Of a DNA stretch of 64,000 nt, positions 26,764-49,337 are shown piece after piece. Numbering within the stretch: the stretch's first letter is position 1; every line of letters begins with the position of its first letter. The notes under the pieces were generated by a model that ran no database searches, was not told where the DNA came from, and was given only the letters and a program-made list of their open reading frames with translations. The stretch is taken from assembly GCA_963682135.1 (NCBI GenBank), contig OY821645.1:1536001-1600000 (forward strand), written 5' to 3'. The DNA is from Methanothrix sp. Lineage in GTDB: Archaea > Halobacteriota > Methanosarcinia > Methanotrichales > Methanotrichaceae. The position numbers and the translations under genes were made by a program.

Positions 26764-27852
26764 ATGTCCGGAAACACCTTTGGCACCATATTTCGCATCA
26801 CCACCTGGGGCGAGTCGCACGGCAGAGCAGTGGGCGTGGTCGTGGACGGCTGTCCGGCCGGATTGGCCCTGACCGCAGAGGATATTCAAAAGGAGCTGGA
26901 CCGGAGAAAGCCCGGCCAGAGCCGCGCCTCTACCGCTCGTAAGGAAGAGGACCGGGTGGAGATACTCTCCGGCATCTTCGAAGGCCGGACGACTGGTACG
27001 CCCATCTCTTTGCTCGTCTGGAACAAGGACGCCGACTCTTCGGCTTACGATCTTCTGCGCAATAAGCCCCGGCCTGGTCACGCCGACTATGCCTATCAGA
27101 TGAAATACGGCCTGCGTGATCATCGAGGTGGAGGCCGGGCCTCGGCTCGGGAGACGGTGGGCCGGGTCGCAGCCGGGGCTGTTGCCAAGAAGCTGCTGCA
27201 TGCCGCTGGCATCTTGGTCGTGGCCTATGTGACAGAGCTGGGCGGAATAAAGGCGGAGATCGCATCTTCAGATTTACTCCAGCTTCAGGCTAAGGCTGAG
27301 TCCAATGCGGTTCGCTGCCCTGACCCCGCTGCTGCGCAAAGGATGATGGGGCGGCTGGATGGCGTGCGCGCAGAGGGCGACAGCCTGGGTGGCGTAGTGC
27401 TAATAAACGCAACGGGCGTGCCTGTCGGCCTTGGCGAACCGGTCTTCGACAAGCTGGATGCAGACCTTGCTCGGGCGCTCATGAGCATTGGCGCAGTGAA
27501 AGCCGTAGAGATCGGCGCGGGCCGGGAGTGCGCCGGAATGAAGGGCAGCGAGATGAACGATCCGCTGCTACTGCGGGACGGCAAGGTCGATTTTGAGAGC
27601 AACAACGCGGGAGGCATCCTGGGGGGCATATCCACCGGGGCTCCCATAGTCTGCACAATCTCAGTCAAGCCGACGCCTTCCATCGCCAAACAGCAGAAAA
27701 CGGTTGATCTTGCCCAAGGCGAGGCGGCGGAGATTGCGATCAAAGGAAGGCATGACCCGGCAATCCCGCCCAGAATTGTTCCCGTGGCCGAGGCCATGGT
27801 GGCCCTGGTGCTGGCAGATCACCTGCTGCGCCAGAGGGCGGGGAGGCTGTAA
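26764..27852 (+). CDS. aroC: Chorismate synthase
   Basis: [42 protein letters not shown]. Confidence 0.98.
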
Positions 27853-28031
27853 TTCTTTTGGCTTCTTCGCGTGAGGTTCCTCATTAAATCTCAAGGAGCA
27901 TACCTTTCTAATCTCGGATCTAGCTCTATCATAGATGCTGATGTTGCTTAACTCATTGTCTACTATAGGGGTTCACTCCCACTTATCCCTTATAACAAAT
28001 TACATATATGTGTGGCATACATTAAGATTAT

Positions 28032-28868
28032 ATGTTCTCGCGGGGTCTGAGTTCCGTATTGCTCTTCCTTCTCGTAGGATCGGCGGCGGACTTAAACGTG
28101 CCTTTTATCTTAGAATTGAATGCCAACGGTTCACATAGTGTTTTAGCATCAGTGAACTCGACACTTGGAACTCAGATCATTCCAGAATATTCTGCTGATG
28201 TCACACACGCACGTTGTGGCCAAGTTCCAGAAATTGAGTATAACATAGTAAAGATAAAAGATCTCAAAGAAATGCTAAACACGAGGATAGAACCGGATAA
28301 TTCACTAATACATGATGAAGCACTTTTGATGGTGGCAAGATTATCAGGACCTGGAGATTCTAAAATTAATCAAATATGTTCAATTTATGAATATCTGAAA
28401 AATGGTAACCCGCCGGTAAAGGGTTGGATTTATATAAATGACCCGAGAGGCTTAGATTACCTCAATTATGCAAATGAATCCGTGAGGATAGGCGACAAAA
28501 CCGATTGTACCGGAGATGGTGATTGCGATGATTTTGCTGTTCTGATAGCTTCCCTCATGGAGTCTATCGGAATGACTACTCGAATTATTCTGGCTAATAA
28601 CAACAGCACAAGTGAACATATCTACGCAGAGGTCTATTTAGGAAATTTAAACTCTCAGGGAAGCCAGGTAAACGATGCTTTAGACTGGCTTAAGCAAAAA
28701 TACAGTACCAATAATATTTTCACGTATAATGATACGGATACTGGTGACGTCTGGCTGAACTTGGATTGGGGGCAGGATGAAAAGGGGAATGAACACCCAG
28801 GGGGGGCTTTTCGTCAAGCAGACGGAAAAATGGTCATCTGGACGAGTAAATATTCTCATCTGGGTTGA
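28032..28868 (+). CDS. Secreted transglutaminase-like protein
   Basis: Signal peptide; GDCDDFA...HIYAEV...WLNLDW Cys-His-Asp triad; close paralogue of the N-terminus of 31754-34291. Confidence 0.85.
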   Translation: MFSRGLSSVLLFLLVGSAADLNVPFILELNANGSHSVLASVNSTLGTQIIPEYSADVTHARCGQVPEIEYNIVKIKDLKEMLNTRIEPDNSLIHDEALLMVARLSGPGDSKINQICSIYEYLKNGNPPVKGWIYINDPRGLDYLNYANESVRIGDKTDCTGDGDCDDFAVLIASLMESIGMTTRIILANNNSTSEHIYAEVYLGNLNSQGSQVNDALDWLKQKYSTNNIFTYNDTDTGDVWLNLDWGQDEKGNEHPGGAFRQADGKMVIWTSKYSHLG

Positions 28869-29084
28869 ACTATACGCCATTGATCTCATGGATGACGCAA
28901 ACGAAGTTGATTGCACTTGATTAGTGCTCCTTATTTGGCCCCTGAATTGACAGGTTTTCATTTTCAACAACTCAGATTGATAGAGCGCCTGCCAAAAATG
29001 AGGATATCATTGCATGAGGTGGCAATAGTTGCTGGGTGCGTGACCACCCAAAAGTTTTTCTATATAGTAAGATGTTGAACATAT

Positions 29085-30563
29085 TTGATGCTTGATCATT
29101 ACTACCATCTTAAGCATGCTTTCAAACGGATCAAAAAAAGGATACCATCTCTAAAAACAATCGAGCAAATGTCTTTTTCTCTTCTCAAGATTATTATAAT
29201 TCTCTTTACGCTTTTCTTTGTGATTGTTGTTACAGTCTGGATATTCGATAAAGAAGACGGCATAGTTGTCCAGCCATTTGAGACATTTGGGATTGATGAA
29301 AATGTGGACGGAAAATCTCTTGCAACCCTTCTTAGTTTTGATCTACAAAAGATTAAAAATATCTATGAACCCGCCCCGAGGATAACAGTCAACCCCAAGA
29401 ACAGTAGCGTGAATAAGATAATCTCAAGACCGCTTGATGAATTTTGTATAACTAATCTTTCTATCAAAAATGCTCATAGTACGCCTTTAGAATATAGCCT
29501 CTCGCAGGTTGGGACTGTAGGCGCTCAAGGAACATCAATATCTATCGGTAATTTGCTCCTTTCCATGAAGGAATTTCTTGGCAATAAGGCGAATGTTATC
29601 ACCTGTAGCCTCCAACGATATAACTCCACCATAATTGCAGTAGCAATTCTTGAAGACTATCATTCCACGAATAGCGTTATGACTTATGAGGATGAAACTT
29701 ACATATCCAAAGATGAGCAAATTCCTTCCTTGATAGACGATCTTGCCTATATGATAGCTCTTGAACAGAGTAAACGAAGGGCTCAGCTAAAAGGGGACGA
29801 TATATTTCCACAAACTTGGCAAACTTTCAAATATGTGACCGAAGGGCGAGATGCTTATAACAATTACATAGAAAAGAAAAATATTAACGACACAAATAAA
29901 CTTAATTATCTAAATAAAGCAAAGAATATGGCTATATTAGCCACATTATCTGAACCTGGCTACAAGGGTTCGTTTGAGCTGCTTTCAGGTCTAGGTTTTG
30001 CACACCTAGAGATGGGAAAATACGATGAAGCGGAAGAAATTTTCAAAAAAATTACTCTGGCCAAGCCATTTGAAAGTGTATTGGGCCTTGGATTGGTTTA
30101 CAGTATGCAGGGCCGCTATGCTGACGCTCTGAATGCGTTCGACGAGGCCACCAGACTGAATCCACGAGATGCAGATGCCTGGAATTACAAAGGCATAGTT
30201 CTTGGCAAAAATGGCAATTACCGTGAAGCTGCTGAAGCCTTTAAAAACACTACGCTGCTAAATCCTCAATATGCAATGGGCTGGAAATATGAAGGCGATG
30301 CACTTGCTAATTTGGGACGTAATAACCATAGCAGGTACAACGAAGCCATCCAGGCTTACGACAAGGCCATCGAGTTAAATCCACAATATGCAGATGCTTG
30401 GAGCTACAAAGGCATTGTGCTATATAATCAGGGCAAGTATGATGAATCTATTCAAGCTTTCGACAAGGCTATCGAACTAAATCAATCTGATCCAAATCCA
30501 AGGACCTATAAAGCCACCGCCATTGAAGGATTAAATGTGCATAATGAATCGGTTAAAGAGTAG
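29085..30563 (+). CDS. Membrane-anchored TPR protein
   Basis: N-terminal TM helix; C-terminal AW.YKG..L...G.Y.EA..AFDKAIELN repeats. Confidence 0.88.
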   Translation: MMLDHYYHLKHAFKRIKKRIPSLKTIEQMSFSLLKIIIILFTLFFVIVVTVWIFDKEDGIVVQPFETFGIDENVDGKSLATLLSFDLQKIKNIYEPAPRITVNPKNSSVNKIISRPLDEFCITNLSIKNAHSTPLEYSLSQVGTVGAQGTSISIGNLLLSMKEFLGNKANVITCSLQRYNSTIIAVAILEDYHSTNSVMTYEDETYISKDEQIPSLIDDLAYMIALEQSKRRAQLKGDDIFPQTWQTFKYVTEGRDAYNNYIEKKNINDTNKLNYLNKAKNMAILATLSEPGYKGSFELLSGLGFAHLEMGKYDEAEEIFKKITLAKPFESVLGLGLVYSMQGRYADALNAFDEATRLNPRDADAWNYKGIVLGKNGNYREAAEAFKNTTLLNPQYAMGWKYEGDALANLGRNNHSRYNEAIQAYDKAIELNPQYADAWSYKGIVLYNQGKYDESIQAFDKAIELNQSDPNPRTYKATAIEGLNVHNESVKE

Positions 30564-30599
30564 CTGGGATTTAAAAGCTAGTTCCCGTAAGGTAGCCAA

Positions 30600-31664
30600 T
30601 GTGTAGTCCCGAAACCTTTGATTTTATATACCCATCAAAGGGGCATGGGAAAGAAGAATAAAGTTGTAAAGCTAACAGATAGGAAGATCAGATATATCAT
30701 TCGGGCCAAAAAGAGAGGCGAGAGCACCAAAAGAATCGCGAAGGATATGAAGTTAAGTCCGTCCTCTGTGAAACGTGTCTGGATGCACTGGACGAAAACC
30801 AAGATGCCCCTAAACATTAAGAAATTTGGGCGAAATAGAAAGACCCTGGATGAAGAGTCAGTTAAGCTGATACTTGAAGTCCACAAAGAGCAAAATTTAG
30901 GCGCAAGACGACTCGAAAAGATCATCGAGTTCACACATGGAACGCATATCCCTCACAATGCTATTCATAAGGAACTGCTATCTCATGGCTTGGCCAATGT
31001 GAACCGCAACAAATCGAAGCGCAGAAAACCCTGGATTAGGTTCGAACGCAAGCACAGCCTGTCCATGGTGCATATGGATTGGCATACAAGCATTCACGAT
31101 GGAAAAAAGGTGTTCATCTGCTTGGTCCTTGATGATAGTTCGCGGCGCATTCTCGCGGGCGGGGAGTTCGATGCCGAAACAAAAGATAACGCTTTGCTAC
31201 TCCTCAAAGAAGCCATGGGCAGATTTGGCTGGCTGACAAGTATTGAGCAGGTGCTGACCGACAGAGGGACACAATTCTATGCAAACAAGCGAGACAAGAA
31301 CGGCGATGCTGATAGCAGATTTGAAGATTTTCTTGAGGCGAATAAAATCAAGCATATCAAGGCTCGCGTTAAGCATCCTCAGACCAATGGAAAACTGGAA
31401 AAATGGAACGACACTTATGAACGTAACAGGTTTAGATTCGAGAATTTTGACAATTTCATGAATTGGTATAATACAGTTAGATTTCATGAGTCCCTTGATA
31501 CAAAATGGTATCTACAGACGCCAGATATCGCATTCTGGTCAAGACTGCCAGAAGGATGCAAATTAGGAATGTTCCTGAATCGGATGGAGACTGAATTAAA
31601 TGGTTGATAAAGAATTTAATTTGCGGACCGGAGTATATAAAGTCCAAACATTCGGGACTATACA
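30600..31664 (+). mobile_element. IS481-family element, apparently intact, 1065 bp
   Basis: TIRs TGTGTAGTCCCGAA / TTCGGGACTATACA; 15-bp direct repeat CCGTAAGGTAGCCAA at 30585-30599 and 31665-31679. Confidence 0.93.
30645..31607 (+). CDS. IS481-family DDE transposase
   Basis: HTH, HMDW, DDSSR, TDRGTQF, HPQTNGKLE, WYN..R.H.SL. Confidence 0.93.
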   Translation: MGKKNKVVKLTDRKIRYIIRAKKRGESTKRIAKDMKLSPSSVKRVWMHWTKTKMPLNIKKFGRNRKTLDEESVKLILEVHKEQNLGARRLEKIIEFTHGTHIPHNAIHKELLSHGLANVNRNKSKRRKPWIRFERKHSLSMVHMDWHTSIHDGKKVFICLVLDDSSRRILAGGEFDAETKDNALLLLKEAMGRFGWLTSIEQVLTDRGTQFYANKRDKNGDADSRFEDFLEANKIKHIKARVKHPQTNGKLEKWNDTYERNRFRFENFDNFMNWYNTVRFHESLDTKWYLQTPDIAFWSRLPEGCKLGMFLNRMETELNG

Positions 31665-31753
31665 CCGTAAGGTAGCCAACCATAAACTTAAATAGTCAAT
31701 CTCACCACAAGTATATATATTATTAGTTAAGATGGAAGGTATTTGAGGTTATT

Positions 31754-34291
31754 ATGTCCTCGTGGGTTCTTTGCGTGCTATGTGCAGTAGTTCTTTTAGG
31801 GCTTGGATTAGCCGCAGCTTCTACTAACTCCTCTCGGGAAATGATTTTTCCTGATGGCTTTCGTATTAATGTTCCACATCTCGGATCATCCACGGAGAGT
31901 GGCGGCCAAGGTACGGGCGTCGAATATCATGTGGTAACGATAAAAGATCTCAAGGAAATGTTAAACACAAGGATAGAACCAGATAATCCGCTAGTCCATG
32001 ATGAGGCACTCTTGATGGTGGCAAAATTATCATCAGGGCCTCGCGATCCTACTATTAATCAAATATGTTCAATTTATAGCTATTTGAAAAATGGTGACCC
32101 TCCGGTAAAGGGTTGGATTTATGTAAACGACCCAAGAGGCTCAGATTACTTCAATTATGCAAATGAATCCGTGAGAATAGGCGACAAAGCCGGTTGTACC
32201 GGAGATGGTGATTGCGATGATTTTGCTGTTCTGATGGTTTCCCTCGTGGAGTCTATCGGGAAGACGACTAGAATTATTCTGGCTTATGACAACAGCACGG
32301 GAGGACATGCCTATGCAGAGGTCCTTTTAGGAAATTTAAACACTCAGGGCAACCAGGTAAACGATACTTTAGACTGGCTTAAGCAAAAATTCAATACTAA
32401 CAATATTTTCACATATCTTGATACGGATACTGGAGATGTTTGGCTGAACTTGGATTGGGGACCAGATGAATATGGGAATGAGCACCCAGGGGGTCCATTT
32501 TGCCAGGCAGATAAAAAAATAGTTGTCACTGTAGGAGACACGCATAACAAAATCCCCATTGTGATGCCTCCCACCAATACGAATAAAGAAGTATTACAAG
32601 TTCCCGCTGTTCGGTTAAATATCACGACGACCGTGATTGAGAGCGATTCTGCAGAAGTATGGTTCAATAAAGGAGTTGCTCTTGTTGATTTAGGTAAGTA
32701 TGATGAAGCCATAAAGGCTTACGAAAAGGCTATCGAGATCAATCCACAAAATGCAGATGCAAGGAACAACAAAGGCGTTGCTCTCTTTGCTCTAGGCAAG
32801 TACGATGAGGCCATAAACGCATTTGATAAATCCATCGAGATCAATCCACAAAATGCAAATGCATGGAACAACAAAGGTGTTGCTCTCTTTACTCTAGGCA
32901 AGTACGATGAGGCTATAAAAGCATTTGATAAGGCCATCGAGATCAATCCGCAAAATGCAGAAGCTTGGTCCAACAAAGGTGATGCTCTCGATGACAAGGG
33001 CAAGTACGATGAGGCCATAAAAGCATTTGATAAGGCTATCGAGATCAATCCCAATTATTCTTATGCCCGGATCGGCAAGGGATTTGGTCTCAATAATCTG
33101 GGCAAATACGATGAGGCTATAAATGCACTTGATAAGGCTATCGAGATCAATCCAAAATATGCAGATGCATGGATAAACAAAGGTGATGCTCTCAATAATC
33201 TGGGCAAATACGATGAGGCCTTGAAAGCACTTGATAAGGCTATTGAGATTGATCCGCAAGATGTATATGCATCATATGCCTGGAACAACAAAGGTACTAT
33301 TTTTTTTAATCTGGGCAGGCACAATGAGGCAATACAGGCTTACAATAAGTCCATTCAGCTTGATCCCAATTTTGTATATGCCTGGGACAATAAAGGTAAT
33401 GCTCTTGATTATCTGGGCAAATACGATGAGGCCATACAGGCCTACGACAAGGCCACAGAGATCAATCCAAAATATGTAAATGCATGGATAGACAAGGGCA
33501 TTGCTCTCGATAAGCTGGGCAAGCACGATGAGGCCAAAAAAGCATACAATAAGACCGTCGGGATCAATTTGTCGAGATCAGTCTACAACATACCGGAACA
33601 TAGAACAACAACGGCAATGGCCATAAAAACCTCAAATCAATCCATCGAAAGCGATCAAGGGTATGCAAATACCTTGATCGGCATGGGATTTGCTCTTAAT
33701 ATGTTGGGCAAGCACGTTGAAGCCATTCAGGCTTACGATAAGGCTATCGAGATCAATCCAAAATATGCAGATGCTTGGAATAGTAAAGGCGATGCTCTCT
33801 GTTTCCTGTATAGATACAATGACTCAATATATGCCTACGACCAGGCTATTAAGCTGAATTCCTCCAATCCCCTCTACTGGAACAGTAAAGGCGATGCTCT
33901 CTATTTCCTGTATAGATACAACGACTCAATATACGCCTACGATCAGGCTATTAAGCTGAATTCCTCCAATCCCCTTTACTGGAACAATAAAGGCAGTGCT
34001 CTTGATTACCTGTATAGATACAACGACTCAATATACGCCTACGATCAGGCTATTAAGCTGAATTCGTCCAATCCCCTTTACTGGAACAATAAAGGCAGTG
34101 CTCTTGATTACCTATATAGATACAATGACTCAATATACGCCTACGATCAGGCTATTAAGCTGAATTCGTCCACTCCCCTTTACTGGAACAATAAAGGCAA
34201 TGCTCTCAGATTGCTTGGACGCACTGCTGAAGCCTATGCAGCTTTTATTAAAGCACACAGGTTGATCCTAGATAGGTGCCTGACGGGCTGA
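31754..34291 (+). CDS. Secreted transglutaminase-like domain plus long TPR array
   Basis: Signal peptide; GDCDDFA...GHAYAEV...WLNLDW; roughly 15 TPR units. Confidence 0.9.
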   Translation: MSSWVLCVLCAVVLLGLGLAAASTNSSREMIFPDGFRINVPHLGSSTESGGQGTGVEYHVVTIKDLKEMLNTRIEPDNPLVHDEALLMVAKLSSGPRDPTINQICSIYSYLKNGDPPVKGWIYVNDPRGSDYFNYANESVRIGDKAGCTGDGDCDDFAVLMVSLVESIGKTTRIILAYDNSTGGHAYAEVLLGNLNTQGNQVNDTLDWLKQKFNTNNIFTYLDTDTGDVWLNLDWGPDEYGNEHPGGPFCQADKKIVVTVGDTHNKIPIVMPPTNTNKEVLQVPAVRLNITTTVIESDSAEVWFNKGVALVDLGKYDEAIKAYEKAIEINPQNADARNNKGVALFALGKYDEAINAFDKSIEINPQNANAWNNKGVALFTLGKYDEAIKAFDKAIEINPQNAEAWSNKGDALDDKGKYDEAIKAFDKAIEINPNYSYARIGKGFGLNNLGKYDEAINALDKAIEINPKYADAWINKGDALNNLGKYDEALKALDKAIEIDPQDVYASYAWNNKGTIFFNLGRHNEAIQAYNKSIQLDPNFVYAWDNKGNALDYLGKYDEAIQAYDKATEINPKYVNAWIDKGIALDKLGKHDEAKKAYNKTVGINLSRSVYNIPEHRTTTAMAIKTSNQSIESDQGYANTLIGMGFALNMLGKHVEAIQAYDKAIEINPKYADAWNSKGDALCFLYRYNDSIYAYDQAIKLNSSNPLYWNSKGDALYFLYRYNDSIYAYDQAIKLNSSNPLYWNNKGSALDYLYRYNDSIYAYDQAIKLNSSNPLYWNNKGSALDYLYRYNDSIYAYDQAIKLNSSTPLYWNNKGNALRLLGRTAEAYAAFIKAHRLILDRCLTG
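33776..34208 (+). repeat. Near-identical 102-bp tandem repeats (4+ TPR units)
   Basis: Unit starts at 33776, 33878, 33980, 34082 and 34184, encoding WN(S/N)KG(D/S)AL..LYRYNDSIYAYDQAIKLNSS.PLY. Confidence 0.93.
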
Positions 34292-34814
34292 CTGATCAAG
34301 ATTGAAGGGGGGGACATGAACCAGATCTCTTTTACCTATTAGATTTAGGGATTTAGGCAAACATTTATAATCTGTAGAGTCCTGAAAGTATTTCGCACCT
34401 GCTCCGATTTCATTTTGTGTGAAGAATTCATATTTCCTCTTATAGCCCAAACAGCCTGTGGCCAATGGCAAAATACATCTCCAGTCGCATCTTTCGTCTA
34501 AATACCCGTTCTGGGGTTTCGAGATGTTCAAACTCCAGGCTACCATGCGGTCTGTTGTTGTACCATTCCCTAAACTCCTCAAATGAAGAAAAGGCTAATC
34601 TATGTCGTTGATATTCGCCAAACCATCGTTCTGGCTTTCCATTTGTCTGTGGATGTTTAACCCTCGCCAGGATTGGTTTAATGCCATGCTTTTCAAGATG
34701 GTTTTTAAATTCACTGTCCCATTTACCGTCTTCATGAACGCGGTGGGCACCGAATTCTGCACCATGATCCAAGATAAGCTCTCGCATGGGGCAGAGCCAC
34801 CAGTATCCTTCAAC

Positions 34815-38338: not shown

Positions 38339-38358
38339 TTCTAAAATTATGTCCTGAT

Positions 38359-39389: not shown

Positions 39390-39409
39390 TTGTACATCCC
39401 TCATCGGTA

Positions 39410-39482: not shown

Positions 39483-39555
39483 AACCATGATCACTCGCAT
39501 TTAGGTGAAGACCAAAACGCCAACCAAATATTGCATCACGATTGCGATCAAGCTT

Positions 39556-39641
39556 CAATAAAAAGCTCAGGCCATCGCTTGTGTTATATCATAATATGAG
39601 AGAAGGTAATCCGGGCCTTACCTTTGGCCCTTGCCATCTGA
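39556..39641 (+). pseudogene. Internally deleted PemK/MazF toxin relic
   Basis: AATAAAAAGCTCAGGCCATCGCTTGTGTTATATCA matches 46212-46246 and is joined directly to a match of 46460-46499. Confidence 0.85.
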
Positions 39642-39869
39642 TCTGCCCGGACGGTGGCCACTGGCGGGCGCTCGGGCCCCGGAGAAGAGGACCCAGCAAA
39701 GATGTCTGGCCTGAGGTCAAGGCCGGGTGCGATGAAAGCGCCCTCTGCTGGGTCTTGCGGCTGCTCGTCCCTACGCTCCCTCGGGATTTCTGGCGGCATC
39801 CGCTCCTGCAGCCGGGTGTCATGCACTTGCGAAGGTTCTGCCCCCCGGAGGCCCGTAAATGGATCTATG
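39641..39869. ncRNA. Candidate structured non-coding element, copy A
   Basis: Diverged duplicate of 46499-46719 with non-triplet indels, an identical 30-nt core at 39715-39744 and compatible stems (folded by eye). Confidence 0.45.
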
Positions 39870-39912
39870 AAGTTCAAATACATTCATGGCGGTTTAACCA
39901 TATCGCAATCAT

Positions 39913-40836: not shown

Positions 40837-40987
40837 AAAGGTAATGCTTATCTATTAGATATAAATTTTATGATACCGACCAATGCTTTGACGCGACCCC
40901 AGGTTGACGTGAATTTGATCCCAAAATAATTACAGTAATATATTTATAAAACTTTGGCATAAATATGTGATCTGGAACAAATGGAGG

Positions 40988-41311
40988 TCAAAAAATCCTC
41001 TCAGCCAGCCAGAAGAGTATCATCCCGGAAATTACGGTTCCACCAAGCGATTTTGTCTTGAGTGCAATGAGAAACGTGGGAATTGCCACCAGCGATTTGG
41101 TCTGCAGCACATCCAGATGGCGCGGGCTGCCGGAAAGAAAGATCTCCGAGAATACCAGGGCGCTAAGAATCGCCACCGGGATCATGTCCAGCCACTCGAT
41201 GAACCAGCGTGGGAGATCTCTATGGGCCAGAAAGAATAGCGGAAGGTAGCGCGGAATGTAGGTAACCAGCCCCATGCCGACTATCAACAGGAGGTATTCC
41301 GTCTTAAGCAT
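40988..41311 (-). CDS. azlD: AzlD-family membrane protein
   Basis: GMGLVTYIPRYLP...WL..IPVAILSALV; overlaps the azlC stop. Confidence 0.88.
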   Translation of the reverse strand: MLKTEYLLLIVGMGLVTYIPRYLPLFFLAHRDLPRWFIEWLDMIPVAILSALVFSEIFLSGSPRHLDVLQTKSLVAIPTFLIALKTKSLGGTVISGMILFWLAERIF

Positions 41312-42005
41312 GCAATCCTCTATTTCTTTGAGCATACCTCTTAAGCCCAAATCCTGCGGTTGCGCCTAAGAGCGAAGCCATGATAACAAAGCCGTTTCCG
41401 GGAACGATAAGTGAGATGCCGACGGCCGCGGCTCCGGATATGATGGCCGTCAAGAAATAAATCCGTCCTCTGAGCTGAATTGTCAGCAGGCAAAGGAACA
41501 TGGCGCTCAGCGCATAATCAATTCCGTAGCTGCCTGCAAGAATAAACTGCCCGGTATAGCCGCCGAGAATTGTGCTCCCGATCCAGGCGAAATTGGATAA
41601 TTGGTTGACCATCAGGGCCTGGTAGCGATGCCATCCTCCTGCTCTAAATTTGACCAGATTCACTGCGAAGCTCTCGTCAGTGACGCCGTAAGCGAAGACT
41701 GATAGAAATCTTCTGCTCACCCCGTGCAAATAGACTGCCAGGGACGAGCTCATAAGCAGGTGCCTCAGATTCACAACGAATGTCGTCAGAATAATGGATA
41801 AGGGCAGAGCGCCGCTGCTCAGCATGGCCACGGCAATGAACTGAGAGCTTCCGGCATACACCAATATCGACATGAGGGCAATATCGAGTAAATCCAACCC
41901 CGCCTTCTGAGCCAGGACTCCGAAGGCAAAGCCGAGAGGAAGGTAGCCTACGCATATGGGCCATGCGGCTTTTATGCTCTGCAGGGCAAAGCCGAATTGA
42001 TTCAC
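41304..42005 (-). CDS. azlC: AzlC-family branched-chain amino acid exporter
   Basis: PICVGYLPLGFAFG, MS.LVYAGSSQF, VNLRHLL, VTDESFA; GTG start at 42005 preferred. Confidence 0.92.
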   Translation of the reverse strand: MNQFGFALQSIKAAWPICVGYLPLGFAFGVLAQKAGLDLLDIALMSILVYAGSSQFIAVAMLSSGALPLSIILTTFVVNLRHLLMSSSLAVYLHGVSRRFLSVFAYGVTDESFAVNLVKFRAGGWHRYQALMVNQLSNFAWIGSTILGGYTGQFILAGSYGIDYALSAMFLCLLTIQLRGRIYFLTAIISGAAAVGISLIVPGNGFVIMASLLGATAGFGLKRYAQRNRGLHA

Positions 42006-42206
42006 AAAGAGCCTCTTATCCGGGATGAGATATCCTTTTCGTCCCCCGATTGCTCGGGCCCGCGGGGCAGGGACCCGAGAAGATGAATGGGCCAAAGAGG
42101 GAAACGGATTCACTTCCCACCCCCATAAGCTTAACATATAATAAAGAATAATACAGAATATGGAGGGATTAAAATAACTAAGAGCACCAACAAAGCTCTG
42201 CTGATA

Positions 42207-42842
42207 ATGTTATTTACATCGATAATTTTGCCTTTATTCCTGTCTGTTGAAGCCGAACCGGGTATTTGTCCGAATTATTATGGTCCGTATGCGCAAAACC
42301 CCATTGGACAATCGGAGTACTGCGAAATTATGATACTCCCTGGAGTCTATGATATACAGTGGGCTCATGGTCCAGAGAGCAATTGGGATTGGCAGCATTG
42401 GGACCAATTGGATATGACGGAAAATAATAGATATGTGCTGACCTATGACTTCAATGGAAAGCTATCAATTGAAGAATATGAGGATTCGAGCTTAACCGGA
42501 TATACATTGATTTGCGGTAAAAACAATGGACCAGATGAACTCGTTTTCTGCCTTAAGCCTGCATCCCAGGAGGCTAGTAAAACAAAGAATGAATTGGTCA
42601 TGGGCTATGAAATAACAGGATATAAAGTATATTTAGATGGAAATTATGTTGGAACGGATGGAGAAAATGGCGATGCGCTTGATGGTAATTTCAAAGTCCA
42701 TGGTATTCCATGTTTGGGAAATCATTCAATCGTAGTCGATGATGGAGATCTCACTCATACCCTGGATTTTTACTTTGGCTGTGGTGAATCGTATTCAATT
42801 AACGTGGGCGATCCCCTCTTTGTATTGGAGAAATCTCAATGA
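42207..42842 (+). CDS. Secreted hypothetical protein with C-terminal PEGA-like domain
   Basis: Signal peptide; KVYLDGNYVGT..G.H.IVV. Confidence 0.7.
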   Translation: MLFTSIILPLFLSVEAEPGICPNYYGPYAQNPIGQSEYCEIMILPGVYDIQWAHGPESNWDWQHWDQLDMTENNRYVLTYDFNGKLSIEEYEDSSLTGYTLICGKNNGPDELVFCLKPASQEASKTKNELVMGYEITGYKVYLDGNYVGTDGENGDALDGNFKVHGIPCLGNHSIVVDDGDLTHTLDFYFGCGESYSINVGDPLFVLEKSQ

Positions 42843-45127
42843 GAATTGACTTAATAATAGCTATCGTCTTTGTCCTGATCAGTCTCGGAACTTGGTCTGC
42901 TATCGCACAAGATTCATCCAAAGGCGTCTGGGTGCTTACAGAAATAGGCAATTTCGAGGGCAATATCGACCAACCGAATCCGTTATCCACAAGGTATATC
43001 GAGCCATGTGGTACATTACGACCTAATCTAACAGCTTCCGGGACGACAGTTACTGGCAAAAATAGACGTTGTGCGAATTGCGATTGCTCCGAAAAAAGTG
43101 ATTGTGTATATTACCTTTACACTACCAGTAGTTGGACTCCTTTGCCCTCCAGATTAAAACCTGGGGACCAGCTCAAAATAACATTGACTTCAGAAGTACG
43201 TGTCGATAAGGAATGTGGTTTCAATAATGCCTGGTTCGCGGAGGTATCGGCGTCATATTGGACCGAAGATCAATTTCATAATGTCAATTCCAACAGCATT
43301 GGAAGAATCCTTTGCAGATTACCAGGAAGAGTTGGAGAGGGACCTTTTGTATTGTCGAATCAATCCACAGGAGCATTTACATATATGGTGCCTGATGGCC
43401 GCTCGGATGGGCAGAAGCTAGCTCTTATGTTCGAGGGAGCCGACTCTGTTCTCGGAAGGGCTAAAAAGAATTATTGGTATACCTATTCTCAGGGGCAAGA
43501 AGCCTCTGCGCCAGCGTCCAAGCTCCCTGATGAGGTAGATGAAAACCATTCGCCCACAGTGATCCTCTCCTATTCCCCCAGCAATCCCACGGAACGGGAT
43601 TTAATAGAGTTCACTGCCGAGGCTAGCGATCCGGATGGTGATGAACTGACCGATAGCTGGTTCATTGACGATGAAGAGCAAGCAGATACTGGTTCGACCA
43701 TGAGCACAACTCTTTCTCCTGGCGATCACACAGTCATTGTGAAGGTATCCGATGGAAAAGGAGGTACCGATGAAGACCACTTACATCTGACGGTGACCCT
43801 CTCATCGGGCATCACCGGCAATGTCATCGAGGCAGTTTTATTGCTGCCCATAACTGATGCGACAGTGACTGTGGAAAACTCCGAGGGAAACATCATACGC
43901 CGGGTATCCGTAGATGGGGACGGGAAATACTCCGTCCTTCTGCCGCCTGGCACCTACCGGGTCTGGGCCTCTGCGCCGGGCTATCTGCCTTCCACGGGGA
44001 TGTCCGGGGAGCATGTGGAGGTTGAACCGGGGATACTTGAAGAGGATGTCAACTTCCGATTGGTGATGGAGCCTACCAATGGAGGAAAAACCTCCGGTGC
44101 AGAACCTATTTTGAGCGGTGGAGCAAGCGGGTCGGAGTTTGGCACAAAGAGCTTCGAATTTGCTGCCTGGGGAACGTACAGGTTTGCAGATATCTCTGGC
44201 AAGAGGTATTTCGCAGCATATCTGGTGAATACCACTCAAGAAATGTTGGATGCAGGCGAATCTGCGCCTTATCTCTGGCTAAAATCCGACAATTGGGATC
44301 TGCTGAAAAATGGGCAGCTCAGCGAGGTTCTGATCGATAATCGCAAAGAAGTGGTCATAACATCCAATAATCCTCTCAAACTGAAAGATGGCTATGAACT
44401 GGCCATTAAGTCCATCGACATCGAGGGAATAAAAGTCTACCTCGAATTGTCCAAGGACGATGCTGTAGTAGACAGCAAGGTCATATCGCCGTTAGAGGCA
44501 GGAGCTACCATGGCTGACAGGACCTACTACTACAAGTCGGATGTAGGGCGGGCAAAGAAAATGGTGCAGATAGCTGTTTACTTCAAGAACACCTTTAAGG
44601 GTATCGATCAGGACCTAGCCAACATCGGAGGAGTGTTCCAGATATCCGAATCGCCTCTGGATAGTGCAACTACGCAAACGGGAGCAGCCAGCATCTCAGG
44701 TCCTAATACAGCAATTGACTGGGTCAGCAAAGGCAATGCTTTCAGGAAACAGGGCAAGCACGACGAGGCCATCAAGGCTTATGATGAAGCCATCAGGTTA
44801 GATCCCAATGACGCAGATGCCTGGTACAACAAAGGCGAGGCTCTCAATTACATGGGCGAAAGCAAGTACGACGAGGCCATCAAAGCTTATGATGAAGCCA
44901 TAAGGCTCGATCCACAGTTAGCTGAAGCTTGGTTTTGGAAAGGCAATCTTCTCAATGCCCAGGGCAAGCACGACGAGGCTCTCGAGGCTTATGATGAAGC
45001 CATAAGGCTCGATCCCAATGACGCAGATGCCTGGGTCGGCAAAGGCGTTGCCCTCAACGCAGTTGGAGATAATACCGAAGCAGAGAACGCCTTCGCCAAG
45101 GCTTTAGAGCTGGGGTATACTGGCTGA
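42839..45127 (+). CDS. Mosaic surface protein: Cys-rich N-terminus, PKD/Ig-like, carboxypeptidase-regulatory-like, S-layer (DUF1608-like) and TPR domains
   Basis: ASDPDGDEL...VSDGKGG; DGDGKYSVLLPPGTYRV.ASAPGY; YFAAY...LSEVLID...LKDGYELAIKSIDIEG.KVYLELSKD..VVDSKVI; TPRs; ends AFAKALELGYTG. Confidence 0.88.
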   Translation: MRIDLIIAIVFVLISLGTWSAIAQDSSKGVWVLTEIGNFEGNIDQPNPLSTRYIEPCGTLRPNLTASGTTVTGKNRRCANCDCSEKSDCVYYLYTTSSWTPLPSRLKPGDQLKITLTSEVRVDKECGFNNAWFAEVSASYWTEDQFHNVNSNSIGRILCRLPGRVGEGPFVLSNQSTGAFTYMVPDGRSDGQKLALMFEGADSVLGRAKKNYWYTYSQGQEASAPASKLPDEVDENHSPTVILSYSPSNPTERDLIEFTAEASDPDGDELTDSWFIDDEEQADTGSTMSTTLSPGDHTVIVKVSDGKGGTDEDHLHLTVTLSSGITGNVIEAVLLLPITDATVTVENSEGNIIRRVSVDGDGKYSVLLPPGTYRVWASAPGYLPSTGMSGEHVEVEPGILEEDVNFRLVMEPTNGGKTSGAEPILSGGASGSEFGTKSFEFAAWGTYRFADISGKRYFAAYLVNTTQEMLDAGESAPYLWLKSDNWDLLKNGQLSEVLIDNRKEVVITSNNPLKLKDGYELAIKSIDIEGIKVYLELSKDDAVVDSKVISPLEAGATMADRTYYYKSDVGRAKKMVQIAVYFKNTFKGIDQDLANIGGVFQISESPLDSATTQTGAASISGPNTAIDWVSKGNAFRKQGKHDEAIKAYDEAIRLDPNDADAWYNKGEALNYMGESKYDEAIKAYDEAIRLDPQLAEAWFWKGNLLNAQGKHDEALEAYDEAIRLDPNDADAWVGKGVALNAVGDNTEAENAFAKALELGYTG

Positions 45128-45443
45128 TCCAGGCTCTGTGTGTAACCTGTATTCTCTCTCTTTCTTTTTCGATATGTATTAACCCACAGAATATTATTAT
45201 AATGAGGCGTCCGATCTCAAACCCTCTTCTGATGGTGCGCCCCAGTTTATAGATACAGCGGTTTTCTATTCCCAATGATGGCGAAAATCCGGAATCACAA
45301 TCGTCGAAGATCCATTCCATAGGGTAATGGGATTAGGCAGTTAGACCAAAGCCAAATTTTAGCCGATTAGTTGGGTTTGTATGCGCCGCTATGAACAACA
45401 TGCATGTTCTGGGCGTGCGCCCTCAATTAGTTCTCTTCTCCTC

Positions 45444-45977
45444 ATATCCTGCAAACTTCGTTCCTTCTCGTGAACCGTGATCACTCGCGAAGCCTTGACT
45501 GGCGCGAAGAGCCTTTGATATCTTCTTGTGCCCAAAATACCTCTCATGCGTAAGGAGTTTCGTAGCCTCATCTCGCTGGAAGAAGCCCTATCGATAGTTC
45601 AAAGCCGCCTTCCCCTGACTAGCGTTGAGACCGTCCCGCTGCCGCTGGCCCAGGGCCGCATCCTGGCCGAGAAGATCGTCTCCTCTCTGGATGTGCCGGG
45701 ATTTGCTCGCGCCTCCATGGACGGCTTTGCCGTGCAGGCGGAAGACACCCTGGAGGCCAGGGAAGACCGGCCCGTCTGCCTGCGCCTGGCCGGCAGCGTG
45801 CCCATGGGCGCGCTCCCCCACGTGCGCGTGGCCCAGGGCGAGGCGGCGGAGGTCGCGATAAAAGGACAGGCACGACCCGGCAATTGCGCCCCGAATTGTG
45901 CCCGTGGGCGAGGTATGGTGGCCCTGGTGCTGGCCGATCACCTGCTGCGCCATAGAGCGGCAAGAATGCAAATTTAA
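45444..45977 (+). pseudogene. moeA-5'::aroC-3' chimera including the moeA upstream region (ORF 45528-45977)
   Basis: 45444-45851 is homologous to 47463-47861; 45831-45960 is homologous to aroC 27712-27840; joined at GCCCAGGGCGAGGCGGCGGAG. Confidence 0.93.
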
Positions 45978-46003
45978 ATAGAATAAGCTATGAGATAATA
46001 TCC

Positions 46004-46156
46004 ATGTGTGAGATCTTGGAGCGTAAAGATCGAAAGCTGAGCCGTCTCTATGAGTCTGACGCAGACAAGACCGACGAGGAGATTGTCGAGGGCCTGATGG
46101 AGATAACTGCCCTTTCTCTTGCAGATTTGCTAGCAGATGAGCCCGCCTATGAATGA
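46004..46156 (+). CDS. Putative antitoxin (50 aa, acidic)
   Basis: Manual translation MCEILERK...SLADLLADEPAYE; overlaps the toxin start. Confidence 0.6.
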   Translation: MCEILERKDRKLSRLYESDADKTDEEIVEGLMEITALSLADLLADEPAYE

Positions 46157-46499
46157 GGAACTGAAAAAAGGCGACATCATCTTAGCACCTCTTTCTTATT
46201 CCGATTTGGTCAATAAAAAGCTCAGACCATCGCTTGTGTTATATCATGATATGAGCGTAATGCAACTCACAGTCGCATACATATCAAGCAAGGTTCCCGC
46301 CGAAGCAGGACCTTATGACATTGTTATTCCCACAGGCACACCCATGGGCACCAAGGCAGGTCTGATCTACCCTTCTGTGGTTAAGGTCTGTTGGATCGCG
46401 ATGGTTAAGAGAATCCTGGTAAAAAGAAAGTTAGGCGAAGCCGATGAAGATCTCAGAGCAAAGGTAAACTGGGTCTTACCTCCTGCCCTTGTCATCTGA
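46149..46499 (+). CDS. PemK/MazF-family toxin
   Basis: KGDIILAPLSYSDLVNKKLRPSLVL...VAYISS...GL.YPSVVK. Confidence 0.88.
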   Translation: MNEELKKGDIILAPLSYSDLVNKKLRPSLVLYHDMSVMQLTVAYISSKVPAEAGPYDIVIPTGTPMGTKAGLIYPSVVKVCWIAMVKRILVKRKLGEADEDLRAKVNWVLPPALVI

Positions 46500-46719
46500 T
46501 CTGCCCGGACGGTGGCGGGCCGTTGGGCCTCGCAGGGCATGGGACCTGGCGAAGATGCACGGGTCTGGGGTCAAGGCCGGGTGCGATGAAAGCGCCCTGG
46601 GGGATCTTGCGCCGTCTCGTCCCAACGACCTATCAGGATTGCGGGCAGCATCGGCGAGCGCCGCCGGGTGGTTCGCTCTTGGGGAAGGACGGCCCCCCCC
46701 GGAGGCTTGGATATCTATG
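46499..46719. ncRNA. Candidate structured non-coding element, copy B
   Basis: See copy A; identical core GGTCAAGGCCGGGTGCGATGAAAGCGCCCT at 46569-46598. Confidence 0.45.
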
Positions 46720-46785
46720 TCTGACCGCCAGCATTGTGTAGTCGGAAATTGTTCACCTCGTCTGCGAGGGGCTGGCTTACATGTT

Positions 46786-47421
46786 TCAGATTTTTGTATT
46801 ATCAATCTTTGCAATAAAATTACCAATTGATTCAAGATCCTTTTTGGATAGATTACTTACCGGCCTTAAATTTACAACATAATTAAATAATTTATCTGCC
46901 TTTAAAATTTTGACACTCGGTTCGTTAAGTTCAAGATGTAATCCTGGCTTTGTAAAGACAACCAATCCTTCTACCCATACACTGAAAGTATCATGGAACA
47001 CCTCTGATTTTATTAGCTTGCTTAAATTAACGGCATTCTTCTTAACTTGCTTGCTAGGGCTATCTGTCTCATAATCCTTGTGGAAAAAAAGGCCCTTTTG
47101 CTTCCTTTGAACCCATTCATCGCCGTGACATATTATCGTTCCAGCCCAATGCTTGGTTTCTATGGCGAAGATGCCTTTTGGAGTGAGCAGAACGTGGTCT
47201 ATATTGCCCCATGAAGATGGCAGAATAACGTCATTAACCAAATAATTGGAATCGTTAAGGCTTTTGAGCGTATTGATGACGATGTCTTCGCCAAGTCTAC
47301 CTTTGTTGTGATCCCTAGCTCTCTTTGAGAAAAAACGTATAATTCTTCCGACCCAGCCGTCGCCCCCAGATTTTTTATCTAGGTAATCACCTCGCTTTTT
47401 GAGTATTATCATGACAATCAA
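46786..47421 (-). CDS. NERD-domain (nuclease-related) protein
   Basis: GRLGED.V...ND...GNIDHVLL...GIFAIETKHW...SP.KQ. Confidence 0.88.
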   Translation of the reverse strand: MIVMIILKKRGDYLDKKSGGDGWVGRIIRFFSKRARDHNKGRLGEDIVINTLKSLNDSNYLVNDVILPSSWGNIDHVLLTPKGIFAIETKHWAGTIICHGDEWVQRKQKGLFFHKDYETDSPSKQVKKNAVNLSKLIKSEVFHDTFSVWVEGLVVFTKPGLHLELNEPSVKILKADKLFNYVVNLRPVSNLSKKDLESIGNFIAKIDNTKI

Positions 47422-47546
47422 TTCGGTCTTAGTTCCCGTTAATCTATATAGAATCTATACTAATATCCTGCAAACTTCGCGCCTTTCCGTGACCCGACCC
47501 CGTTGATGAATCTGCGAAGAGCCTTTTATATCTACTCGCGCCCAAA

Positions 47547-49337
47547 ATGCCTCTCATGCGTAAGGAGTTTCGTAGCCTCATCTCGCTGGAAGAAGCCCAA
47601 TCGATAGTTCTTAGCCGCCTTCCCCTGACTAGCGTGGAGACAGTCCCGCTGCCGCAGGCCCAGGGCCGCATCCTGGCCGAGAAGATCGTCTCCTCTTTGG
47701 ACGTGCCGGGATTCGCCCGCGCCTCCATGGACGGCTTTGCCGTGCAGTCTGATGACACTTTGGCAGCCAGGGAGGACCGGCCTGTCTGCCTGCGCCTGGC
47801 CGGCAGCGTGCCCATGGGCGTGCTCCCGCGCGTGCGCGTGGCCCAGGGCGAAGCGGCGGAGGTGTCCACCGGCTCCATGATGCCGCCGGGCGCGCAGGCA
47901 GTGGTCATGATTGAATACAGCCAGGCCGAAGGGGATCAGGTTCTGATCAGAAGGCCCGTCTACGGCGGCGAGAATGTGCAGGCGGCAGGAAGCGACATCT
48001 CTTTTGGCGAAGCTGTGCTCTTTCCCGGCACAAAGCTTGCAGCGCGCGAGATGGGGGTTTTGGCTGCCCTTGGCCGAACGAAAATGCCAGTGCGCTGCCT
48101 CAAGGTTGGCCTGGCCTCTACCGGCAATGAGCTGGTGGCGCCCGGCGGGACTCTGGCTGCGGGCCAAATATACGACATCAACACCTACACCATCGCTGCG
48201 GCTGTAACCGACTGCGGTGCGCAGGCCGTCCCCTACGGCATCCTGCCGGACGAAAAGAGATCAATGGCAGCATTGCTGCAAAAGATGGCCGAAGAGTGCA
48301 ACATGATTCTGGTGAGCGGCAGCACCTCAGCAGGCGTCGGAGACATGATCTTTCAGGTCTTAGAGGAAGTAGGCGAGCTGATATTTCACGGCGTGAACCT
48401 CAAGCCAGGCAAGCCCACCATCTTCGGCCAGATCAATGGCAAGCCCTGCCTGGGTCTGCCCGGCTATCCCACCAGTGCTCTGACCGTCTTCTCCTGCCTG
48501 GCAGCTCCTGCCATTCGTGCCGCTTTGGGCCAGAAGCATTCCCGAAAGAGAGTGACGGGACGGCTGGCCGGACCGCTGCGATTCGATGGTCGCCGCCAGG
48601 TGCTGGCCGTGGGCCTCTCGAACAGGTTGGTCTATCCCGTGGACAAGGGAAGCGGCTCTATCACCACTCTGGCCGGAGCGGATGGCATTATCGACATCCC
48701 TGTGGGAGTTGAGTATCTGGAGAAGGGTGAGAATGTAGAGGTGGAGCTATTTGGTGAGATGATGCCAGCCGACCTTGTGGTGGCGGGTGAAAACGCTCTC
48801 CTCCTGGAGCAGTTGGCAGAAAGGGCGTCCGGGCGTATCTTGCTATTGAATAGCGGCTCGGTGCGAGCCAGGCTCTACCTGGAGGACGGCGTGGCTGACC
48901 TGGCCTGCATCTCTGGTCCGCAAGCGATGCCGCCGGAAACGGTCGCGAAAGGCATGTCGTTGATCGGGAGTTTTAAAAGAGAGCTGGGCCTGGTCTTCCG
49001 GGATGCGAGCGCTTTGTCGAACCTTGCCGACCAACGCATCGTGGGCTGGCAGCGGGACTCTGCCATGCATGGCGCATTTGAGAGACATCTGTTGGCTTTA
49101 GGACTGACTCATCCCAGCTACGTGCGAGCGGCCAGGACCCATTCGGCTGTGGCTGCGGCGGTCGCCTCCGGACGGGCGGATGTGGGATTTGCGGAAAAGC
49201 GAGCTGCTGCGGATGCGTCTTTAGGTTTCCGGCTACTGGAACAAGACGAGATTAGGCTGCTGACCAGGCAGGAGAATGTCGATGACGACCGGCTCAAGTC
49301 CCTGGTTCTGGCGATTTCTCAGGCAGGAGGGGCTTGA
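47547..49337 (+). CDS. moeA: Molybdopterin molybdenumtransferase MoeA with C-terminal PBP-like domain
   Basis: ASMDGFAV, STGNEL, SGSTSAG, KPGKP, GLPGYPTS; C-terminal THSAVAAAVASGRADVG. Confidence 0.95.
   Translation: MPLMRKEFRSLISLEEAQSIVLSRLPLTSVETVPLPQAQGRILAEKIVSSLDVPGFARASMDGFAVQSDDTLAAREDRPVCLRLAGSVPMGVLPRVRVAQGEAAEVSTGSMMPPGAQAVVMIEYSQAEGDQVLIRRPVYGGENVQAAGSDISFGEAVLFPGTKLAAREMGVLAALGRTKMPVRCLKVGLASTGNELVAPGGTLAAGQIYDINTYTIAAAVTDCGAQAVPYGILPDEKRSMAALLQKMAEECNMILVSGSTSAGVGDMIFQVLEEVGELIFHGVNLKPGKPTIFGQINGKPCLGLPGYPTSALTVFSCLAAPAIRAALGQKHSRKRVTGRLAGPLRFDGRRQVLAVGLSNRLVYPVDKGSGSITTLAGADGIIDIPVGVEYLEKGENVEVELFGEMMPADLVVAGENALLLEQLAERASGRILLLNSGSVRARLYLEDGVADLACISGPQAMPPETVAKGMSLIGSFKRELGLVFRDASALSNLADQRIVGWQRDSAMHGAFERHLLALGLTHPSYVRAARTHSAVAAAVASGRADVGFAEKRAAADASLGFRLLEQDEIRLLTRQENVDDDRLKSLVLAISQAGGA

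Follow-up and report, generated by a model that had tools for sequence, protein, structure and literature searches.

Transfer hot spots that lie between core genes, lack an integrase, and are diversified by homologous recombination at their flanks have been described in bacteria (Oliveira et al. 2017, PMC5635113). In Prochlorococcus, tycheposons undergo serial integration at tRNA genes, with copies of the target's 3′ end bordering the cargo (bioRxiv 10.1101/2020.12.28.424599). Here we set beside these systems the space between aroC and moeA in Methanothrix sp. (contig OY821645.1 of assembly GCA_963682135.1), examined within a window of 64,000 nucleotides (nt) that spans positions 1,536,001 to 1,600,000 of the contig's forward strand and supplies the coordinates used below. 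The two genes stand 19.7 kb apart in this genome, and the intervening cargo is divided by dead copies of their own ends, one of which fuses the start of moeA to the end of aroC. On balance, we lean toward reading these copies as layered recombination scars at an insertion hot spot, made by ordinary cellular recombination with no dedicated machinery.

The locus shares several properties with the core-gene hot spots of the bacterial study (PMC5635113): the interval is variable, the core pair that flanks it is adjacent in most relatives, its content turns over fast, no integrative element is recognizable in it, and one of the flanking genes, here moeA, appears mosaic. It differs in that a double crossover leaves no scars, whereas dead duplicates of gene ends and a fusion are found here, so that a single or unequal crossover or a joint at short homology is needed; the host, in addition, is an archaeon, whereas the cited study is bacterial. 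As in the tycheposon islands, incomplete copies of the target stand between the cargo segments, older segments are displaced inward by those that arrive later, and decayed remnants persist. Unlike those islands, the aroC–moeA interval has no integrase and no fixed core site, its target is a pair of protein-coding genes, and one of its borders fuses two genes.

Three recombination processes also invite comparison. Tandem duplication by unequal or short-homology recombination joins the distal end of a unit head to tail to its proximal end at a short shared sequence. The locus has a join of this form, moeA 5′ end to aroC 3′ end at a shared sequence with both flanking genes intact, but its units are not full-length copies, and one half of the joint is older than the other; one of the halves also lies nearer to the gene of another species in a tree. 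Homology-facilitated illegitimate recombination, a process of transformable bacteria in which one end is anchored by homology and the other is joined at a few to tens of bases, would give the order native moeA 5′ end, shared word, foreign segment, moeA; unlike the expectation for that process, the anchor point in moeA is not sharply defined here. We know of no demonstration of the process in methanogens, nor, in the literature examined, of any documented DNA uptake by Methanothrix. The genomic accordions of poxviruses, in which near-identical units change in copy number rapidly and reversibly under selection, offer the image of a locus gaining tandem units, but the units here are neither near-identical nor seen to vary in number: they are old and mutually unlike, and the contigs of isolate-type sequencing runs hold no number variation. 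A literature search on genomic islands and toxin–antitoxin (TA) systems of Methanothrix yielded nothing on the aroC–moeA locus.

Both genes that bound the interval are intact. The left anchor, aroC (chorismate synthase; 26764–27852, plus strand), matches the Pfam family Chorismate_synt (E = 7e-143) and is 69–90% identical in amino acid (aa) sequence across the family genomes that we compared (100% to itself). The right anchor, moeA, occupies 47460–49337 on the plus strand together with its upstream region, the gene itself running from 47547 to 49337, and carries the Pfam domains MoeA_N, MoCF, MoeA_C, and PBP_like. When the whole window was searched by nhmmer with profiles built from relatives, exactly three copies of each facing gene end were found: for the aroC 3′ end, 27713–27864, 45832–45983 (E = 2e-37), and 39331–39393 (E = 2e-11); for the moeA 5′ end, 47549–47839, 45541–45829 (E = 6e-93), and 38241–38342 (E = 6e-18). 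An earlier note on this DNA had described three cargo units between aroC and moeA, bordered by relics of both housekeeping genes. All the features that it named can be found, none of them more than a few bases from the position given for it, and the duplicated ends of the two genes bear out its account of the borders.

The same note raised the worry of a strain chimera collapsed into one contig, an artifact that we consider very unlikely. The locus does bear repeats, and the contigs of several metagenome-assembled genomes (MAGs) of relatives break there. The genome here, however, is a single closed contig of 3.04 Mb, and short-read contigs from public runs bridge all of the junctions. The contigs of run X14 (Logan) cover 36718–45569, which takes in the old relics and all of unit 2, and 45781–47579, which takes in the hybrid joint and unit 3, with 0 differences in either stretch. 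Runs from two studies, under two organism labels, hold 97–100% of sampled words, though one run may represent the source sample. The share of words in run X18 is lower (0.72); its contigs are fragmentary but otherwise identical, and so do not represent a variant.

The wide separation of aroC and moeA is exceptional. Our comparison set comprised 60 genomes of the family, including 58 other members of the genus (59 genus genomes in total), and both genes are present in 60 of 60. By a tally made by eye from coordinates, the gap between them is at most 200 nt on one contig in 39 of the 60 genomes, 0.4–1 kb in 9, and 2.2 kb or 6.8 kb in 2; in the remaining 10 the genes lie on different contigs or one of them is cut. 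Since the gap is so short in 39 genomes, the adjacency of the two genes is ancestral and the 19.7-kb gap marks an insertion hot spot. What the gap contains varies by species and includes genes for hydrolase-like (secreted) proteins, acylphosphatase, radical-SAM and ABC proteins, LCM and TetR proteins, permeases, PIN proteins, and PemK and other TA proteins. Pfam searches of 19 open reading frames (ORFs) of the window and 68 gap ORFs of relatives detected no tyrosine or serine recombinase, and the only recombinases found in the window and the relatives' gaps are DDE transposases (rve, DDE_Tnp_1, and ISL3). The earlier statement that no integrase is visible holds in this sense, but three DDE transposase genes are present in unit 1. 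A gap protein of 450–500 aa that lies beside aroC in five species was considered as a hidden recombinase and rejected; it belongs to no Pfam family, and its GGSGGG-type motif and hydrophobic leader give it the look of a secreted hydrolase (a label assigned by eye). Two radical-SAM genes with an ABC transporter occur in or beside the gap in two genera (L014 of G009, from another genus, and L048/L012 of G033; relatives are referred to by G numbers). The cluster may be either old gap content or content that has moved between the same address in different genera.

At the border between units 2 and 3, the stretch 45441–45983 is one continuous moeA-5′::aroC-3′ hybrid, whose left part aligns at the DNA level to moeA and whose right part aligns to aroC. 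The left half (45441–45830, plus strand) consists of the moeA upstream region and moeA nt 1–294; the right half (45852–45983, plus strand) is a decayed aroC 3′ end with two indels and a changed stop codon. Between the halves lies a 21-nt word (45831–45851, plus strand), copies of which are found in aroC (27712–27732, plus strand), where it encodes AQGEAAE, and in moeA (47841–47861, plus strand). This is a novel joint in which the distal end of a unit (moeA 5′) is linked to the proximal end (aroC 3′) at a word whose aroC and moeA copies agree in 19 of their 21 letters. In the 3.04-Mb genome there are three occurrences of the word, in aroC, the hybrid, and moeA, and none of its reversed control; among 297 random genomic segments none gave a match of 19/21, and among 200 codon shuffles of moeA one did, so that the resemblance first pointed out in the earlier note stands above both controls. 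The hybrid ORF (45528–45977) has a Pfam MoeA_N match at residues 15–110. The frame of this pseudogene is still open, at 149 aa from a GTG start, and its MoeA_N part is undecayed.

The note's further claim, that the hybrid records an exact crossover inside the word, is not borne out by comparison with relatives. The right-hand base taken as diagnostic of aroC, a G, is the moeA state too in 16 of 19 relatives, and the three bases that follow the word in the hybrid (GTC) are moeA-like; the switch therefore falls at the word's right edge or immediately beyond it. Nor does the word behave as a site conserved beyond its coding role. Both genes encode A-x-G-E-A-A-E throughout the genus with varying codons, the word differs at silent sites among relatives, and within each of seven relatives the aroC word and the moeA word match at 15–18 of 21 positions when counted by eye. 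In G039 the match is 18/21 and there is no insert, and the profile search finds both old relics (38241–38342 and 39331–39393) to be without the word. That the word is a dedicated or maintained site is not supported by these comparisons.

The two halves of the hybrid are of unequal age. Private changes number 0 in 294 positions of the moeA half, as against 8 in 119 of the aroC half, which also has two indel columns; the 5′ end of the resident moeA has three. The moeA half is 92.5% identical to its counterpart in G076 and 92.2% identical to the resident gene, while the resident and G076 share 87.4%. In a tree of 19 rows and 294 columns, from which G057 and a second G073 copy were left out, the hybrid moeA half groups with G076 and G061 with support of 95/97, apart from the resident moeA. 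Taken together, these results indicate that the joint is young, that it fused the 5′ end of a working moeA to an aroC relic already dead, and that the two moeA 5′ ends are not the product of divergence in place. By hand count, 13 of the 23 differences between the hybrid and resident copies lie at third codon positions, which suggests that most of this divergence arose while both were working genes. The duplicates are thus not each other's closest relatives, nor are the halves equally old, as tandem duplication would have them. The earlier note had proposed asking whether the relics are closer to the genes of other strains than to the resident ones, and had suggested that DNA of related strains was involved; the grouping with G076 and G061 answers the former in the affirmative for the moeA half and makes the latter probable. 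Runs of sites along moeA alternately favor G076 or G084, the best break point falling near 48080 (p = 0.001, uncorrected for the scan). Behind the aroC half of the hybrid, as behind the aroC relic at 39331–39393, lies the same TA module.

Much of what separates the two genes is native to the locus in this part of the genus. The core of unit 2 is 94% identical in nt sequence over 2547 nt to G084, its azlCD genes are 91% identical to those of G033, and the match to G061 is 82%. In G084 the order is a pemK relic with the same internal deletion, a repeat, the Cache gene, azlD, azlC, an S-layer/TPR gene, and moeA; in G061 it is a TPR membrane protein gene, azlD, azlC, and moeA; and in G076 the TPR membrane gene directly follows aroC. 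Unit 2 and the TPR membrane gene are therefore inherited gap content in this subclade. The region upstream of moeA in G084 matches window positions 45285–45382, which flank the hybrid and not the resident moeA, and that in G076 matches 45284–45503. The left half of the hybrid thus sits at the former position of moeA and, as the comparisons with G076, G084, and G061 indicate, unit 3 and the present moeA 5′ end lie to the right of it. We observe also that the unit 2 core (39558–42094) is 94% identical to contig C190 of G084, whereas aroC and moeA are about 87% identical, a contrast that suggests a recent exchange of the unit 2 segment between lineages.

Scars of the same general kind recur in relatives, with break points that are scattered. 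Of the 58 other genus genomes, at least 9 (G033, G053, G084, G094, G099, G098, G069, G051, and G062) carry an additional aroC 3′ end; these copies begin at nt 679, 687, 843, 857, 882, about 967, and 1038 of the gene, with no common site. Pieces of the moeA 5′ end are found in 2 of the 58, in G076 (moeA nt 22–75) and in G098 (the upstream region plus 52 nt), and end at nt 75 and 52. In G098 the order is aroC, a relic of the moeA start, 3.5 kb that includes the same TA module, a relic of the aroC end, and moeA. The aroC copy beside moeA in G094 has 0 private changes in 120 positions and, by eye, three differences in about 160 nt from the functional aroC 3′ end and spacer of G039; it is therefore the displaced native end of aroC, the working end having arrived with cargo. 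The piece in G076, the closest relative (contig C98, L030, reverse strand, within the first 212 nt), is 54 nt long and 98% identical to the hybrid here; it abuts a 5′-truncated azlC, beyond which lie about 5 kb of duplicated LCM methyltransferase and TetR genes and then moeA. It is a scar distinct from those here, though at the same address. In G055 (L011, 5829–6154) two pieces of the aroC 5′ end (nt 1–242 and 313–414) immediately precede the intact gene, a duplication scar on the other side of aroC. The aroC relic on contig C60 of G051, which starts at the word, was considered as a possible second hybrid; no moeA piece precedes it, and a truncated ORF that by eye is nucleotidyltransferase-like stands there instead. 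A DNA scan of the 59 genus genomes found a match across both halves of the hybrid in none of the 58 others. One scan of JGI metagenome contigs with a degenerate pattern, in which records near this genome may be excluded, returned only an unrelated AT-rich chance hit. The gap content does vary among relatives, but hybrid junctions are not found in the other genomes scanned.

Units 2 and 3 resemble each other only at their left ends, which align at 73–96% through an aroC relic, an antitoxin/pemK module, and a repeat; repeat families and alignment agree with the earlier note that PemK and a noncoding element are common to both units. In unit 2 the module (39394–39860, plus strand) is decayed, with an internal pemK deletion of about 200 nt, also present in G084, followed by a copy of the repeat (39635–39838). 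The rest of the unit holds genes for a Cache protein (39913–40836, minus strand), AzlD (40988–41350, minus strand), and AzlC (41304–42137, minus strand), a 211-aa ORF (42207–42842), and a gene for an S-layer/PKD/TPR protein (42839–45127), the named assignments being from Pfam. Unit 3, which is exactly one repeat period of 2010 bp after the hybrid, holds an antitoxin-like ORF of 50 aa (46004–46156, plus strand) that overlaps the start of a PemK/MazF-like toxin gene (46137–46499, plus strand; Pfam PemK_toxin, 37.6 bits against a cut-off of 23.1); together these form an intact predicted type II TA pair of the PemK/MazF type. A further copy of the repeat (46493–46692, plus strand) and a gene for a NERD-domain protein (46786–47421, minus strand; Pfam NERD, E = 6e-23) complete the unit. 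Homologues of the TA module (77–84% nt identity) occur in many genus genomes elsewhere in the chromosome; homologues of the NERD protein occur in 5 of the 58 other genus genomes, at no more than 44% identity and never beside moeA. In G042 (C1:1666313–1668985), far from aroC, an antitoxin–PemK homologue (78% nt) neighbors a NERD homologue (41% aa), and the cargo of unit 3 may therefore be a small travelling module.

The repeat is a GC-rich element of about 200 nt that is dispersed in the genus, with up to nine matches per genome and two in this one, and in most genomes it is not tied to pemK. Two copies in G084 flank the Cache–AzlDC genes as direct repeats and could promote their deletion. As a structured RNA the repeat was a candidate that we rejected: there is no Rfam match at E values up to 1 save a chance lncRNA hit, and 15 copies give only a weak consensus fold (-10.2 kcal/mol; covariation term, -0.19).

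Unit 1 (27853–38240) is low-GC cargo, at 37–44% GC compared with 53–60% in the flanks. Pfam assigns to it a transglutaminase-like (TGase-like) gene (28032–28868), a TPR gene (29085–30563), an rve-type insertion sequence (IS) transposase (30618–31607), a TGase-TPR gene (31754–34291), a second rve-type transposase gene (34440–36962, minus strand) that is split by a DDE_Tnp_1 IS (34926–36527), and the TPR gene that ends the unit (37123–38148). Copies of the unit 1 IS are found elsewhere in the genome at 97–99.9% identity, the 99.9% copy being that of the nested DDE_Tnp_1 element. The rve IS at 30618–31607, in opposite orientation, and the nested rve/DDE_Tnp_1 pair bracket the TGase-TPR gene in the manner of a composite transposon. 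Two of the unit's three TPR genes are related through an internal duplication (28213–28639 and 31899–32328, at 81–87%): the separate TGase-like and TPR genes (28032–30563) and the fused TGase-TPR gene (31754–34291) are diverged duplicates, 81–87% identical over about 560 nt. The TPR genes that end units 1 and 2 have a common C-terminus and 3′ motif (69% over 88 nt), as the earlier note had seen, and a strict form of the C-terminal motif has two matches in the genome, both in these genes.

The border between units 1 and 2 had been described as a moeA relic followed by an aroC relic. Both are present, but the border is composite, for a native gene lies between them. The old moeA 5′ relic (38241–38342, plus strand; moeA nt 177–278) ends 16 nt before the word and is 80–86% identical to the moeA genes of relatives. 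The TPR membrane protein gene that follows (38359–39171, minus strand; Pfam TPR) is 78–79% identical in nt sequence to contig C209 of G076 and to G061. The old aroC 3′ relic (39331–39393, plus strand) comprises the last 60 or so nt of the gene and has the same changed stop codon (TAA to CAA) and the same next letters as the aroC half of the hybrid. This border may best be read as two separate scars: the first would be what is left of an earlier hybrid after deletion of its joint and its aroC part, and the second an aroC relic that goes with the TA module following it.

How might such a locus come about? We suggest that the aroC–moeA boundary is a small flexible island in the genus, and that its growth here took at least three layers. 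A segment with one end within aroC and the other within moeA would have been joined head to tail to the resident copy, creating dead duplicates of the gene ends. Such a joint would leave an intact aroC on the left, an intact moeA on the right, and a moeA-5′::aroC-3′ pseudogene between them, at no cost to the cell; joints of this kind would be tolerated because both genes stay whole. The young joint would have used a short sequence that the genes happen to share, presumably because both encode A-x-G-E-A-A-E in GC-rich codons, and the enzymes would be those of the cell's ordinary recombination and repair. Two routes seem plausible. One is an unequal crossover between copies of the chromosome; the other, which the sequence comparisons favor for the young joint, is the entry of DNA from a related lineage with a homology anchor in moeA, its other end being joined at the word. 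The joint would have united the 5′ end of a moeA then working with an aroC relic that had decayed beforehand and was by then followed by the TA module. Later changes in the cargo may have come from the insertion of IS elements, from deletions between repeats, and from exchange with relatives. The comparisons given above establish the anatomy of the interval, the ancestral adjacency of the two genes, the variability among relatives with recurrent scars at scattered break points, the lack of a recombinase among the ORFs scanned, and the unequal ages of the hybrid halves; from them we infer by which route the recombination proceeded, where the DNA came from, and in what sequence the older events took place.

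Several observations weigh against this account. The identity of the resident moeA to G076 shows no step at the word (87.4% before it, 87.3% and 88.3% over the next 600 nt, and then 91–92%), so that a simple picture in which moeA was imported up to the word fails. A compact donor interval of the form aroC/TA/NERD/moeA was not found among the 58 other genus genomes. The set has one genome per species, and many of these are fragmented MAGs whose contigs break exactly at the locus. The tree is built from only 294 columns, one of its branches (G061) is long, and the same topology would result if an old duplication in place had later collapsed in the G076 lineage. For the pristine state of the moeA half, gene conversion or selection on the open 149-aa ORF could be responsible.

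Of the alternatives, the simplest is tandem duplication in place, in which two or three unequal crossovers at the word within one lineage were followed by turnover of the cargo, and no foreign DNA is needed for the junctions. We consider this rather unlikely. It explains a head-to-tail hybrid at short homology, the left end that units 2 and 3 have in common down to the changed stop codon, and the TPR C-terminus that units 1 and 2 alone in the genome possess; G098 shows the plain pattern of a duplicated boundary; and the loss of units by recombination between repeats of 300–400 nt would be easy enough to make their absence in relatives weak evidence. But the moeA half of the hybrid is not sister to the resident gene, the two halves differ strongly in decay, and the resident 5′ end has three private changes against none in what is supposed to be its pseudogene copy. 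The shared unit ends are 69–96% alike, yet that moeA half is pristine. Because G084 has the pemK deletion of unit 2, units 2 and 3 had separated before the deletion arose. Four public runs were compared, all as assembled contigs, which cannot show rare forms; in those of the three isolate-type runs (X14, X17, and X18) there is no copy-number form, circle, or deletion joint, which argues weakly against duplication in place. A joint that appeared to go back by 17970 proved to be a resident aroC contig aligning to the aroC half of the hybrid. Joints in a wetland metagenome, 39494 to 46022 (side 24, depth 2.8) and 42055 to 46525 (side 25), had sides of only 20–50 letters and are too weak to use; they might represent relatives with other arrangements, and 42055–46525 matches the azlC/repeat adjacency of G084. 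The repeated amplification envisaged in the earlier note is thus at odds with the dissimilar unit ends, the native content of unit 2, and the lack of variant joints in the isolate-type contigs. Its alternative, excision as a circle and re-integration, fares unevenly: the head-to-tail topology fits a re-inserted circle as well as an unequal crossover, but no circle appears in those contigs.

Could the word itself be the point of entry? It might serve as a docking site that needs no recombinase, at which aroC-to-moeA segments, as circles or as linear DNA of neighboring strains, insert at either gene through the cell's recombination proteins, an idea we judge improbable. If it were correct, Methanothrix populations would trade defense and surface genes at one safe address with no mobile-element machinery, the hybrid pseudogene would be the footprint left by each docking, and the word would have been homogenized to 19/21 by repeated use. 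The repeated 3′ ends of a target that border cargo are also the classic mark of serial integration, and the locus could consist of stacked, decayed elements that integrated site-specifically at an attachment (att) site in aroC (and moeA), their integrase having been lost or acting in trans. The incoming segment in G094 did bring its own aroC 3′ end and push the native end inward, and TA, PIN, MNT, and NERD genes are common in the cargo. We hold such elements to be quite improbable, given that no tyrosine or serine recombinase is encoded by the ORFs scanned, that relic starts are scattered over aroC nt 679–1038 with no single core, that the word varies at silent sites among species, and that the fusion of a moeA 5′ end with an aroC 3′ end is not an outcome expected of site-specific integration into aroC. 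Very unlikely, in our estimation, is a dedicated, integrase-free exchange system along the lines raised in the earlier note, in which circles bearing the hybrid joint are cut out and re-insert at either gene through the word, are held by the TA pair, and vary the cell surface. The match of 19/21 does exceed the controls and the values counted in the seven relatives, unit 3 is exactly one period with an intact TA pair, and much of the cargo is surface-type or leader-bearing, with N-terminal hydrophobic leaders or S-layer, PKD, Cache, TGase-like, or TPR domains. However, the hybrid occurs in only 1 of 59 genus genomes, this one, and the JGI scan gave a chance hit only; G039 has a close match with no insert; the content of unit 2 is vertically shared; and excision at the two words would leave the donor chromosome with neither essential gene whole. 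With the pemK of unit 2 deleted internally and an intact pair in unit 3 alone, the idea that TA modules stabilize the array loses its footing, and the notion of a surface-diversifying cassette system was drawn from cargo typical of any flexible island.

The locus, in our view, does not represent a new class of element, and a purpose-built, TA-stabilized array of surface cassettes is not supported. Read as layered scars at a hot spot, it suggests that two essential genes in tight linkage can turn into a landing site in the absence of an integrase: when the ends of a joint fall inside both genes, the genes remain whole and a harmless middle piece is created in which cargo can accumulate. The dead gene ends serve as datable scars from which the order of events can be read, and they point to the probable incorporation of DNA from related lineages. 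In practical terms the locus is of modest use: the interval may provide a marker for strain typing and a place to seek strain-specific surface and defense genes. Methanothrix is a major acetate-using producer of methane, and little is known of its gene uptake. The scars at the aroC–moeA boundary may offer one record of how this organism gains genes.

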